From IMG/VR virus record IMGVR_UViG_2728369355_000004: DNA of 64,000 bases. The stretch is one strand, 5' to 3'. A model generated the notes under the pieces. The model saw nothing but the letters and a program-made list of their open reading frames with translations, made no database searches and was not told the DNA's origin. The position numbers were made by a program, and so were the translations under genes. Of the stretch, positions 42,825-44,046 are shown piece by piece. The DNA comes from a virus. Lineage: Duplodnaviria > Caudoviricetes. Each line of letters begins with the position of its first letter. Within the stretch, counting starts at the first letter, position 1.

Positions 42825-44046
42825 CTACCACCGCCTCTACCCAATCGTCAATTAGATCATCCTCTGTATTGCCTTCTCCCGTAACCTTGGCCCTTTCGAG
42901 TTCAAGTTTCTCACGCTGAATCTTAAGTTTTTCGTCCTCAAGCATCCGTTTATGTTTGTCTGGGAGCAGATCCATGTATTTAGTCAGTACGTCCAAAGCC
43001 TTAGTTTTATCGTGTAGTTTAACACTTACACCATCCTTGCCCTGCTTCACCTCTGAAACCAGAGTCCCATCAATTTCATCACTATTTTTGAAAGCTACAA
43101 AATTATATCTGTACTTCTTAGTGTCTCCAGTGTCTGGATCAAAGACTGGCTCACCTTCCAGTCCTAGAATATCTTCTTCCTTTTGACCAAACTCTACGTA
43201 ATCAGTAATGTCTGCAAAAGCGATCTTCATATATTCCATCAGCACACGTTGTGCATTCAACCCCACCTCGTGGATCATGGATTCCTTATGCTGTCGAATA
43301 ATGTTTTGAATTTCAACTTTCTTCAACAGAGCGAAACCAATTTGATAGGCGGTTTTCTTACTGTATCCCGCCGCAATCGCTGACCTGGTAGCATTGAAGT
43401 CTCGAAGGTATTCATAAGTGAATATCCTTTGCTTAGGCGTTAATCCGTCCTCATCGGGAATTTCCGGTTCAGGTTCTTCAACAGTCGCTGGAACGCTCTG
43501 TACTTTTTTGGAACGTTCCATATTACCGGAGCGTTCCGGTATTTTTTTCGGAACGTTCCGTATTTCTGGAGCAGCGTCTTTTAGCTCTTTAGAGAGCGCA
43601 TCAACTGTTAGCAGGGTAGCATATACCTCTCTTGGCTTATCACCTTGATATGTACCAACGAATTTACGCCGCTCCATTTCATCAATCAGTCGGGCCGCGC
43701 TGCTATAACCTATCCTCATTCTTCTCTGCAATAAAGAAACCGAGGCTTGTTTGGCCTCGGCTATAATTTGGACAGCTTTTAGAAAAAGCTCATCCGAATA
43801 TGATGTTGGTTCTTCATCTTTATTTGGAGGTTCCTTTTTTTGATTAGTTTCATTTTCATTAGAACGTTCCGTATGTTTTCCTTCCCCAACAATCAAACTC
43901 TCCCACTTATCTTTAGCCTTCCATCCTCTTACCGTACCTTCAGATACACTAAGTTGAGAGGCTATTTCTGTGAGACGTATTTTGCCGGAACTGGCTTTGT
44001 ATAAATCAAATGCTTCGTCCCGTTTCGGATCTCTCTTTCGTCCCAT
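42757..44046 (-). CDS. terS: Terminase small subunit with inserted FtsK-gamma domain
   Basis: N-terminal HTH ([11 protein letters not shown]); [54 protein letters not shown]. Confidence 0.88.
   Translation of the reverse strand: [429 protein letters not shown]
43490..43870. repeat. GGAACGTTCC-type palindromic repeats in terS (candidate pac region)
   Basis: Copies at 43490, 43510, 43528, 43550 and 43861. Confidence 0.65.

Follow-up and report, generated by a model that had tools for sequence, protein, structure and literature searches.

The terS locus

The window considered here, which is the whole 64,000-nucleotide stretch of DNA that was analysed, carries a terS locus that belongs to a Paenibacillus prophage. 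The terS gene lies directly upstream of terL within a head-morphogenesis operon whose genes are all on one strand, and the prophage also encodes a tyrosine integrase.

42757..44046, minus strand: terS, small terminase subunit P0001, 429 aa; open reading frame with Pfam matches to PF10668, PF09397 and PF03592, and phrog_2606 at E 1e-85
41364..42824, minus strand: terL, large terminase subunit; phrog_2 at E 5.3e-51, weak Pfam matches to Terminase_6N/Terminase_3; adjoins or overlaps the end of terS
33954-35432, same strand as terS: portal
31225-32238, same strand as terS: major head protein
62813-64000+: tyrosine integrase of the prophage

Pfam matches together with an AlphaFold model divide P0001 into three folded modules spaced by two disordered linkers.

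43897..44046, minus strand: N-terminal HTH, PF10668 Phage_terminase, residues 1-50 (Pfam E 5.6e-19); carries the recognition helix
43798..43884, minus strand: linker 1, residues 55-83, disordered (pLDDT <50 for residues 55-83); holds box 1
43618..43797, minus strand: FtsK/SpoIIIE gamma winged helix, PF09397, residues 84-143 (Pfam E 3.8e-24, PDB, Foldseek)
43450..43578, minus strand: linker 2, residues 157-199, disordered (pLDDT <50 for residues 157-179 and 184-191); holds boxes 2-5
42919..43443, minus strand: Terminase_2 core, PF03592, residues 202-376 (Pfam E 7.3e-45)

The N-terminal HTH is modelled by AF2 as helices within residues 7-53 at a pLDDT of about 85, and the linker that follows it is variable in the homologue alignment. 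The Terminase_2 core comprises an SF6/SPP1 G1P-like HTH, a helical core and beta strands. A sequence search of solved structures returned for it the SF6 small terminase 3zqp (E 3.2e-8, residues 199-284) as well as 4zc3 and 2cmp, and Foldseek returned 3zqq (E 1.4e-4) and 4zc3, the latter superimposing on the HTH DNA-binding domain at a TMt of 0.91. Like P0001, the G1P of SF6/SPP1 is a pac-type TerS whose gene adjoins terL; whereas G1P has a single N-terminal HTH, P0001 possesses two more DNA-binding modules before it, carried on long disordered linkers.

A gamma domain within the small terminase

The first-pass annotation of this DNA had proposed that an FtsK/SpoIIIE gamma domain is inserted at 43620-43800, behind the N-terminal HTH and ahead of the TerS core. 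The domain proves to be a genuine winged helix by Pfam profile, by sequence search of solved structures and by Foldseek, and it lies where it had been placed: the match occupies nucleotides 43618-43797, the peptide originally quoted corresponds to residues 85-141, and the Pfam domain order sets it between the HTH and the core. The HMM scan for FtsK_gamma that had been suggested as a check matched PF09397 at E 3.8e-24 and 84.6 bits, where the curated threshold is 30.6, over profile positions 3-62 of 63 (89.2 bits in the whole-genome scan). The gamma of E. coli FtsK, 2j5p, was matched at E 1.8e-8 by sequence and with a Foldseek TMt of 0.75 by structure. The AlphaFold model of gamma, with helices at 85-98, 103-110 and 114-126 plus a wing (pLDDT about 83-85), superimposes on KOPS-bound FtsK gamma 2ve9_A with a TM(target) of 0.87 and an rmsd of 1.2 Å over 58 columns. 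Both the winged-helix fold and the conserved LQRRxRIGYxxAARLI..ME and KPREV motifs are shared with the gammas of FtsK/SpoIIIE (2j5p, 2ve8/2ve9, 5dcf). Those gammas sit on an alpha/beta motor, whereas this one is embedded in a terminase subunit: Pfam finds no PF01580 FtsK motor domain in P0001, and the FtsK_SpoIIIE motor matches in the genome, an 894-aa translocase and a 1338-aa frame at 5.10 Mb, are both outside terS. In public records many TerS of this family go under the wrong name 'cell division protein FtsK'.

The E. coli FtsK residues N1296, R1300 and E1303, whose substitution by alanine leaves the protein KOPS-blind, align to S115, R119 and D122 of P0001 and to T, R and D of the host translocase, so that P0001 looks host-like at these positions. 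Helix 3 begins with SS in the lineage of P0001 and with TR or SR in the host and most TerS gammas; the host's T at position 115 and its R at position 116 are both S in P0001. The SS pair may reflect an altered or relaxed specificity of this gamma.

Ancestry and conservation of gamma

In a tree of 55 columns the TerS gammas cluster with the SpoIIIE-like host gammas and not with the SftA-like ones. Those from Brevibacillus group with Brevibacillus hosts (support 83/72) and those from Paenibacillus/Cohnella with their own hosts (support 86/75), and a TerS gamma is 67-80% identical to the gamma of its own host, as against 58-67% to TerS gammas from the other group of genera. TerS gamma tends to follow host genus, but the signal is weak: only 55 columns are available, and the test does not reject one clade that holds all TerS gammas (lnL -9.1, p-AU 0.059), one common origin being neither shown nor rejected.

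The gamma of P0001 and that of the 894-aa translocase of its own host are identical at 42 of 61 residues, but only 17 of those 42 codons are identical. A nucleotide identity of 60.7% and a longest identical run of 11 nt rule out recent conversion by the host gene in this genome. Among close relatives gamma is conserved at 82-95%, level with the N-terminal HTH and the core, and its amino acids are conserved although synonymous sites are saturated. By these sequence comparisons, gamma originates from the SpoIIIE-type translocase genes of hosts and is maintained under purifying selection.

What is being conserved need not be a DNA contact. Among the most conserved parts of the TerS gammas is the segment RRMRIGYSS (RRMRIGYTR in the host), which aligns to RQFRIGYNR of FtsK, a 9-residue segment (residues 1289-1297) described in PMC5052618 as sufficient to activate XerD. 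Gamma might instead be a protein-contact module that touches a tyrosine recombinase, either a host Xer-type enzyme or the prophage integrase, in the way that FtsK gamma touches XerD, or that titrates a host SpoIIIE partner; packaging would be coupled to concatemer/dimer resolution or excision, or the host would be interfered with. The prophage does encode a tyrosine integrase, and the tracking of host genus would fit a host protein partner as well. However, the same FtsK surface binds DNA according to PMC5052618, so the conservation fits both readings, and for TerS, a late protein with a known job in DNA recognition, a DNA role is simpler. Protein contact, with the outcomes attached to it, seems to us quite improbable.

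Distribution of gamma among small terminases

The survey of TerS homologues that the first-pass annotation had called for found gamma in 80 of the best 120 homologue clusters, its carriers being Paenibacillus, Brevibacillus and Cohnella, and found it absent in the other 40, which include TerS proteins of about 290-340 aa with the same N-terminal HTH and core. A TerS tree was built on the HTH and core of 106 of the best 120 proteins, 72 with gamma and 34 without it; on this tree the presence of gamma takes 10 changes, and starred branches force at least 6 of these. As read from the tree, gamma is a dispensable module with at least 6-10 gains or losses behind it; it counts as accessory because close TerS relatives exist both with and without it. 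Among 121 species-representative genomes of the host family, this genome alone was found to have a TerS-type gamma. In related strains, RNA-library contigs from 4 runs in 4 studies, 85-95% alike, cover terS with its gamma part; they attest to presence in relatives, not to transcription, ends or strand.

A module that is dispensable in its family, with 10 gains or losses on the tree, could be a functionless neutral passenger left by illegitimate recombination. Yet it is kept in two-thirds of these clusters and in three genera, it is conserved as well as functional domains are, its amino acids held while synonymous sites diverged, and its fold is predicted at the confidence given above. We therefore regard the passenger explanation as very improbable.

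Gamma-less TerS of phrog_2606, for example those from the Bacillus phages phi4J1, IEBH, PM1 and D6E and the PBSX-like XtmA, have the same N-terminal HTH and Terminase_2 core as P0001 but are 265-340 aa long, without the roughly 100-residue gamma insert. A different arrangement is found in vB_BcM_Sam46 and Sam112, phages of Bacillus, whose two-domain gamma-TerS was published in 2021 (Kazantseva et al., Sci Rep, PMC8190038). Like P0001 these proteins combine FtsK_gamma and Terminase_2 in one polypeptide, and their gamma is described as closest to those of Firmicute hosts (PMC8190038). The Sam46 TerS shares 34% identity with P0001 across 166 aa that take in gamma and the beginning of the core. 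It is 254 aa long and lacks a PF10668-like start, gamma standing at its extreme N-terminus (residues 11-70) instead of any other HTH, and its Lys-rich linker is free of ERS/GGAACGTTCC boxes; P0001, by contrast, keeps its PF10668 HTH, with gamma placed after it and before the core, amid a palindromic box array. The same paper places the Sam46 pac cut about 4.5 kb upstream of terS (PMC8190038).

Palindromic boxes within terS

Five copies of a short repeat lie in the linker-coding DNA of terS. As had been remarked at first pass, the gamma-coding segment separates the box at 43861-43870 from the other four, at 43490-43559.

43861..43870: box 1, plus strand AGAACGTTCC, sense GGAACGTTCT; read as E-R-S, residues 60-62
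43550..43559: box 2, GGAACGTTCC, perfect 10-bp palindrome; read as R-N-V-P
43528..43537: box 3, plus strand GGAGCGTTCC, sense GGAACGCTCC; read as E-R-S
43510..43519: box 4, GGAACGTTCC, perfect palindrome; read as E-R-S
43490..43499: box 5, plus strand GGAACGCTCT, degenerate; read as S-V-P

Allowing at most 1 mismatch, GAACGTTCC has 23 strand-counted matches in the 64-kb window, where 9.66 +/- 3.5 are expected and 0 of 100 shuffles reached 23; the stretch of terS from 43490 to 43870 holds 9 of the 23, and all 5 of the exact ones. Positions 43510-43559 form the sole cluster in the 5.76-Mb genome of at least 3 sites within 120 bp (at most 1 mismatch to GGAACGTTCC). The box consensus is GGAACGYTCC, and this one 10-mer is translated in frames 0, 1 and 2 to give NGTLQ, RNAP/RNVP and ERS. 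Because a single 10-mer is read in all three frames, the boxes are DNA-level sites and not protein-level repeats.

The boxes go with a particular type of N-terminal helix. The 9,702 bp of linker DNA from 31 terS genes whose helix is of the GTVRGWK type hold 89 boxes, against 2 in the 23,328 bp of the remaining gene and 7 in 179,282 bp of flanks; every one of the 31 has at least 2 boxes, while none of 10 genes with other helices has any. Those other helix types pair with other palindromic repeats, GTAACGTTAC, GTAGTACTAC and CGAACGTTCG, at a spacing of about 18-22 bp, a co-variation seen in related, non-independent sequences and with few examples per class. Gamma-less relatives with the GTVRGWK helix have the same boxes in their linker-coding DNA, and in 13 gamma-less terS genes the boxes are equally dense. 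Since boxes are present without gamma and co-vary with the helix of the HTH, the GGAACGTTCC boxes are probably pac sites read by the N-terminal HTH and not by gamma.

That gamma itself reads the flanking GGAACGTTCC repeats would be suggested by their position directly on both sides of its coding segment. The equal density in gamma-less genes and the co-variation with the HTH helix argue against it, as does P0051, a gamma-bearing protein with another helix, which has no ERS in its first 230 residues and whose first linker carries NVVQQ and KVVQQ, like that of gamma-less L077. Moreover, the known gamma sites, as PMC3384302 describes them, are asymmetric G-rich octamers and not palindromes. Box reading by gamma is extremely doubtful on this evidence.

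The search for a motif read by gamma

The 64-kb window yielded no SRS-like motif in the prophage: GAGAAGGG and GAGCAGGG are absent on both its strands, where about 5 occurrences would be expected at genome density. Octamers were also compared between 18 gamma-bearing loci (12 Paenibacillus-type and 6 Brevibacillus-type) and 13 gamma-less loci, over 800 bp upstream and the initial 700 nt of terS, the gamma part being masked, and none was shared by the two gamma-bearing types while missing from the gamma-less loci. The top octamers, AGCAGAGG and GGGAGAAC, occur in 6/6 closely related Brevibacillus loci and in only 2-3 of the 12 others, which is probably kinship. In the host chromosome, ranking 7- and 8-mers by leading-strand skew gave generic purine- or G-rich words from which no motif stood out; the best 8-mer skews are 0.84-0.92, with GAGCAGGG at 274:46 and GAGAAGGG at 139:31.

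These results bear on whether gamma retains the SpoIIIE reading of oriented SRS-type chromosomal motifs, so that the terminase would load host DNA in generalised transduction or a GTA-like process, possibly directionally. PBSX packages host DNA, and the TerS family takes in the PBSX-like XtmA of the B. subtilis group, although the PBSX-like TerS has no gamma. The gamma is of SpoIIIE type and close in identity to that of its own host, its helix2-loop-helix3 and wing are conserved, and its amino acids have been held despite synonymous saturation. The idea is also in print for Sam46/Sam112, where KOPS/SRS-like loading sites, or binding of host SRS with transduction, are the two speculations offered in PMC8190038. 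The first-pass annotation had likewise suggested that gamma could bias the initiation or direction of packaging, also towards host DNA, or could compete with host translocases. Against it, the skew ranking for a host SRS reached at most about 0.92 with generic G-rich words, and the host's R at position 116 is S here. Because TerS keeps in its own gene a specific box cluster that is unique in the genome, phage-specific initiation is the better fit, and loading of host DNA through gamma appears unlikely.

A proposed role for gamma in packaging initiation

Within the packaging-initiation complex, gamma most likely serves as an auxiliary contact with DNA. We envisage a three-module 'beads-on-a-string' TerS in which the N-terminal PF10668 HTH would dock on the palindromic GGAACGYTCC boxes that lie, within terS itself, in the DNA coding for the linkers, the box cluster serving as the pac recognition site, while the SF6/SPP1 G1P-like core would form a ring and recruit TerL. 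The flexibly tethered gamma would make a second contact with DNA, with a host-SpoIIIE-like sequence preference or with low specificity, and would raise the avidity of the initiation complex. It might also add polarity, since the palindromic boxes carry none. Taken as a whole, with the HTH on pac boxes and gamma as the auxiliary contact, we would give this model an even chance. The contribution of gamma may be small, since gamma-less relatives evidently package without it.

A bolder version holds that gamma sets the polarity of packaging: the terminase would read the oriented words of the host translocase, headful packaging would run in a defined direction, and host DNA would be packaged directionally at SRS sites. 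We consider this quite unlikely; if true, it would be a case of a terminase using the cell's own chromosome-orientation code.

A fusion of gamma to a small terminase had been published once before; what is new here is the gain and loss of the module, its SpoIIIE type, its tendency to group by host genus, the purifying selection read from its sequence and the DNA-level nature of the boxes. The way in which small terminases choose their DNA and fix the packaging direction is poorly understood, and the level of host-DNA transduction depends on pac specificity. The TerS family offers a natural experiment, in which near relatives occur with and without a host-derived gamma, together with a self-contained HTH/box cassette that has apparently changed specificity several times. 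Should gamma read polarity motifs of the host type, phage packaging would be tied to the chromosome-orientation code of FtsK/SpoIIIE; if it only adds avidity, the family's sequences would still allow pac sites, and the module that reads them, to be predicted with unusual clarity.

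The terS gene and its setting

The first-pass annotation had placed an FtsK/SpoIIIE gamma domain within the small terminase (TerS) at 43620-43800, and Pfam, sequence matches in the PDB and Foldseek confirm both the domain and its coordinates.

Packaging genes and the domains of the TerS protein P0001
42757..44046, - strand: terS, 429-aa protein P0001 (ORF and translation)
P0001 residues 1-50: PF10668 Phage_terminase HTH (Pfam E 5.6e-19)
P0001 residues 84-143: PF09397 FtsK_gamma (Pfam E 3.8e-24)
P0001 residues 202-376: PF03592 Terminase_2 (Pfam E 7.3e-45)
41364..42824: terL, next gene downstream of terS (phrog_2, 5.3e-51)

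The HMM match to FtsK_gamma reaches 84.6 bits against a cut-off of 30.6, and PHROGs assigns P0001 to phrog_2606, terminase small subunit (E 1e-85), through two matched stretches that skip the gamma part. Among solved structures, the gamma sequence matches FtsK gamma of E. coli and P. aeruginosa (2j5p, 1.8e-8; also 2j5o and 2ve8), while residues 199-284 match the SF6 small terminase 3zqp (3.2e-8) and the SF6 DNA-binding domain (4zc3, 2cmp). An AlphaFold2 model built on 19 homologues (mean pLDDT 67.4, pTM 0.29) is confident over three modules, residues 7-53, 85-135 and ~200-390; block pLDDT is ~83-89 for the first, the second and the HTH of the last, and the linkers joining them (55-83, 157-179, 184-191) are of low confidence. 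Foldseek superimposes its gamma on the KOPS-bound gamma 2ve9_A (TMt 0.87, rmsd 1.2 A, 58 columns), and parts of the model match 3zqq (E 1.4e-4) and 4zc3 (TMt 0.91). The identity of the domain as FtsK gamma is near-certain, and P0001 is a real and well-supported domain fusion.

Two homologues, P0031 and P0035, are publicly annotated as a 254-aa TerS from internal Met176 (MERSKK..., window about 43519-43521), a start codon inside box 4 (see below) that would leave out the N-terminal HTH and gamma. No obvious Shine-Dalgarno sequence precedes Met176; this start is probably an annotation artefact, the alternative being that it may give a short TerS isoform.

The window occupies positions 239551-303550 of a single 5.76-Mb contig, and the proteins nearest P0001 carry the names of Paenibacillus polymyxa and its relatives. 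Cumulative GC skew (maximum ~4.9 kb, minimum ~2.856 Mb) puts the origin at about 2.86 Mb and the terminus at about 5 kb; the prophage is thus ~240-300 kb away from the terminus, and its late genes lie on the leading strand. The assembly numbering thus starts near the terminus, not the origin. Portal and major head genes lie further downstream of terL, and a tyrosine integrase lies at the right end. The neighbourhood also holds several other genes, including ~6 kb of cargo at 35624-40747 (-), between terL and the portal gene, which is an unusual insertion site for a head-morphogenesis operon.

Other genes near terS
35624-38050, -: 808-aa protein with three SLH domains (terL-portal cargo)
38622-39212, -: Mrr_cat restriction-endonuclease-like protein, E 1.9e-38 (terL-portal cargo)
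39923-40747, -: 274-aa orphan (terL-portal cargo)
44290-45915, +: 541-aa ORF, immediately upstream of terS and on the other strand; no match in Pfam or PHROG
46969-47898, -: 309-aa ATPase (AAA_21/AAA_15; AbiEii-like/OLD-type family), upstream of the packaging genes

Related-strain contigs from three of four runs part from the window at about 44100-44114, which marks the 541-aa ORF as strain-specific; it is a candidate moron or defence gene, and the ATPase may be a defence gene.

Palindromic boxes and the N-terminal HTH

Five 10-bp palindrome-like boxes (consensus GGAACGYTCC) lie within terS, spaced 20, 18, 22 and 311 bp from start to start. The gamma-coding segment falls in the 311-bp gap, between the 43861 repeat and the 43490-43559 cluster, as the initial reading had it.

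Boxes in terS (+ strand sequence)
43490-43499: box 5, GGAACGCTCT
43510-43519: box 4, GGAACGTTCC
43528-43537: box 3, GGAGCGTTCC
43550-43559: box 2, GGAACGTTCC
43861-43870: box 1, AGAACGTTCC

The window contains 23 box matches (9.66 +/- 3.5 expected; 0 of 100 shuffles as high), and its five exact matches are all within terS. Exact box 10-mers number six in the 5.76-Mb genome, two of them in terS, and the terS cluster is the only one in the genome with at least three sites within 120 bp. Every terS box lies in DNA coding disordered linkers, and the boxes are translated in different frames (R-N-V-P, E-R-S, S-V-P). Relatives read the box word as NGT(L/F)Q (frame 0), RNAP/RNVP (frame 1) or ERS/ERN (frame 2), in gamma-bearing and gamma-less proteins; judged from sequence, the repeats are DNA-level sites independent of gamma. 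That gamma itself reads the boxes, although it is encoded between them, is accordingly the kind of explanation to which we give very little credence.

Box and recognition helix were compared at 41 of 78 terS loci in related genomes, those where the match reached the N-terminus, leaving out duplicates (L011, L036) and one locus with failed anchors (L069) and taking 5 of 12 B. subtilis-group loci. The 31 genes with a GTVRGWK-type helix hold 89 boxes (at most one mismatch) in 9,702 bp of linker DNA, whereas the other 23,328 bp of gene sequence hold 2 and 179,282 bp of flanking DNA hold 7; each of the 31 has two or more. Boxes of this class occur in none of the 10 genes with other helices, which are accompanied by other palindromic repeats at similar spacing.

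Repeats accompanying other N-terminal helices
DSQIRKWK: GTAACGTTAC, two copies
EKTISAWK: GTAGTACTAC, two copies, the second degenerate in L039
EKKIATWK: GTAGTAC/GTTGTAC-type, three boxes
AGTVRRWK: CGAACGTTCG, two copies
PBSX-like TIGIWKK: no palindromic repeats

Box sequence thus varies with the helix, among related sequences falling into few classes, and the core HTH is nearly constant across them. Family-wide (L024, L030, L032, L038, L039, L064, L077; window 43450-43900), TerS genes carry 2-5 such boxes at ~18-22 bp spacing, just downstream of the part coding the N-terminal HTH and readable in all three frames. The simplest reading would be that this HTH reads boxes that closely follow the DNA encoding it, and that these form the pac recognition element; HTH and boxes look like a self-contained reader-plus-site cassette with swapped specificity. 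A full-text literature search returned no paper pairing the box motif with 'pac site'.

Gamma as an accessory, host-type module

The proposed survey of homologues covered the best 120 clusters at 90% identity (1852 matches at E <= 0.001 among 8000 scored candidates). PF09397 and PF03592 occur together in 80 and PF09397 is absent from 40, so the fusion is not unique; its bearers belong to Paenibacillus, Brevibacillus and Cohnella, and the source records of several give the name 'cell division protein FtsK'. When scanned, species-representative genomes yielded about 20 gamma-bearing loci among the 78, and TerS-type gamma occurs only in the window's own genome among 121 sampled from the host's family; the form is sporadic, like prophage genes generally. 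In 50,697 deposited phage records, the nearest full-length TerS relatives measure 265-292 aa, and none of them has gamma; 137 records have a gamma match, and among the 60 listed only Bacillus phages Sam46 and Sam112 have it annotated in a small terminase.

In some genomes, two or three different prophages each have a gamma-bearing terS: one Paenibacillus ottowii contig has two about 60 kb apart (L008, L011), and B. reuszeri NIT02 and one B. borstelensis genome (G125, G126) hold two each. Other non-translocase gammas also exist in related genomes: a 369-aa Brevibacillus reuszeri frame (L097, G125:C61) with a diverged gamma, 38% identical to the query gamma, and, at G086:C10:107125-107295 and G107:C169:8737-9225, frames of 716 aa and of 747 aa, the latter with two gamma domains.

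On a tree of N-terminal HTH plus core (106 of 120 proteins, 72 with gamma and 34 without; 8 N-terminally truncated entries and 6 lacking sequence anchors left out), explaining where gamma occurs takes 10 changes, and well-supported branches force at least 6 of these; several near neighbours differ by the insert alone, among them P0085 and P0108, and P0067 and P0098. Gamma is very probably an accessory module of TerS. Such coming and going might suggest a neutral passenger, which we consider highly improbable: within the P. polymyxa group, identity to the query is 82-95% for gamma, 84-96% for the N-terminal HTH and 82-99% for the core.

The genome's only other gamma belongs to an 894-aa FtsK/SpoIIIE translocase encoded at 5.06 Mb. 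The two domains agree at 42 of 61 residues, including an identical run of 18, while only 17 of the 42 use the same codon; with residues kept and codons and nucleotides diverged, the likeness is old and maintained by protein-level selection. Recent copying or gene conversion from the translocase gene is ruled out by the 60.7% nucleotide identity and longest identical run of 11 nt. Every gamma from ten genomes with gamma-bearing TerS and from the window's own was compared (13 TerS, 11 SpoIIIE-like and 4 SftA-like host domains; L097 dropped for incomplete coverage). TerS gammas are 67-80% identical to their own host's SpoIIIE-like gamma, 58-67% to TerS gammas of the other genus group and about 51-52% to SftA-like gammas. 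In the maximum-likelihood tree, Brevibacillus TerS gammas group with Brevibacillus SpoIIIE-like gammas (support 83/72), and those of Paenibacillus/Cohnella with their hosts' gammas (86/75). A tree constrained to hold the TerS gammas as a single clade is worse by 9.1 log-likelihood units over 55 columns, suggestive evidence against such a clade at a p-AU of 0.059, which is not significant.

What gamma may do

Since gamma is unneeded for the boxes, it must add something else. The best-conserved TerS-gamma columns fall in helix 2, the loop, helix 3 and the wing (S.S.LQRR.RIGY..AA.LI..ME, PR.V), a surface that in FtsK is described as contacting KOPS DNA and XerD alike (PMC5052618). Contact with a recombinase or host protein through this surface is nonetheless a reading we think improbable. 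An auxiliary DNA contact inside the packaging-initiation complex is favoured by the kept contact surface, the SpoIIIE type, the flexible tethers (30-50 residues, between two other DNA-binding modules) and a core that, by homology to G1P, would form a ring; gamma may there supply the asymmetry that palindromic boxes lack. We put this DNA-contact role somewhat short of even, and give the explanation as a package (identity, accessory status, auxiliary contact) an even chance.

The first-pass annotation had gamma reading oriented KOPS/SRS motifs, with a possible bias towards packaging host DNA. GAGAAGGG and GAGCAGGG are absent from the 64-kb window, where genome counts predict about 5, and GGGNAGGG occurs twice; no gamma-specific octamer was found across gamma-bearing versus gamma-less loci, and skew alone singled out no host SRS. 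These results count against a specific SRS-type target, and host-SRS-guided packaging of host DNA through gamma seems unlikely, if less so than the other alternatives.

Precedent and significance

The same interpretation was proposed for Sam46 and Sam112 by Kazantseva et al. 2021, whose text describes a two-domain TerS (gamma, residues 11-70; Terminase_2, residues 107-230), termed previously undescribed, suggests that gamma either uses KOPS/SRS-like loading sites on the phage's own genome or binds host SRS with transduction, and maps the pac cut about 4.5 kb upstream of terS (PMC8190038). It was the only paper found in a literature search for gamma in terminases, and the gamma-TerS fusion as a kind has thus been in print since 2021. 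Over 166 aa, Sam46 TerS and P0001 share 34% identity; Sam46 TerS lacks the PF10668-type N-terminus and the linker ERS motifs that P0001 has. P0001 belongs to a sizeable, little-noticed family, to which the present analysis adds the three-module arrangement, a gamma that is a repeatedly gained or lost, selected, host-type module, and the separation of that gamma from the pac-type boxes.
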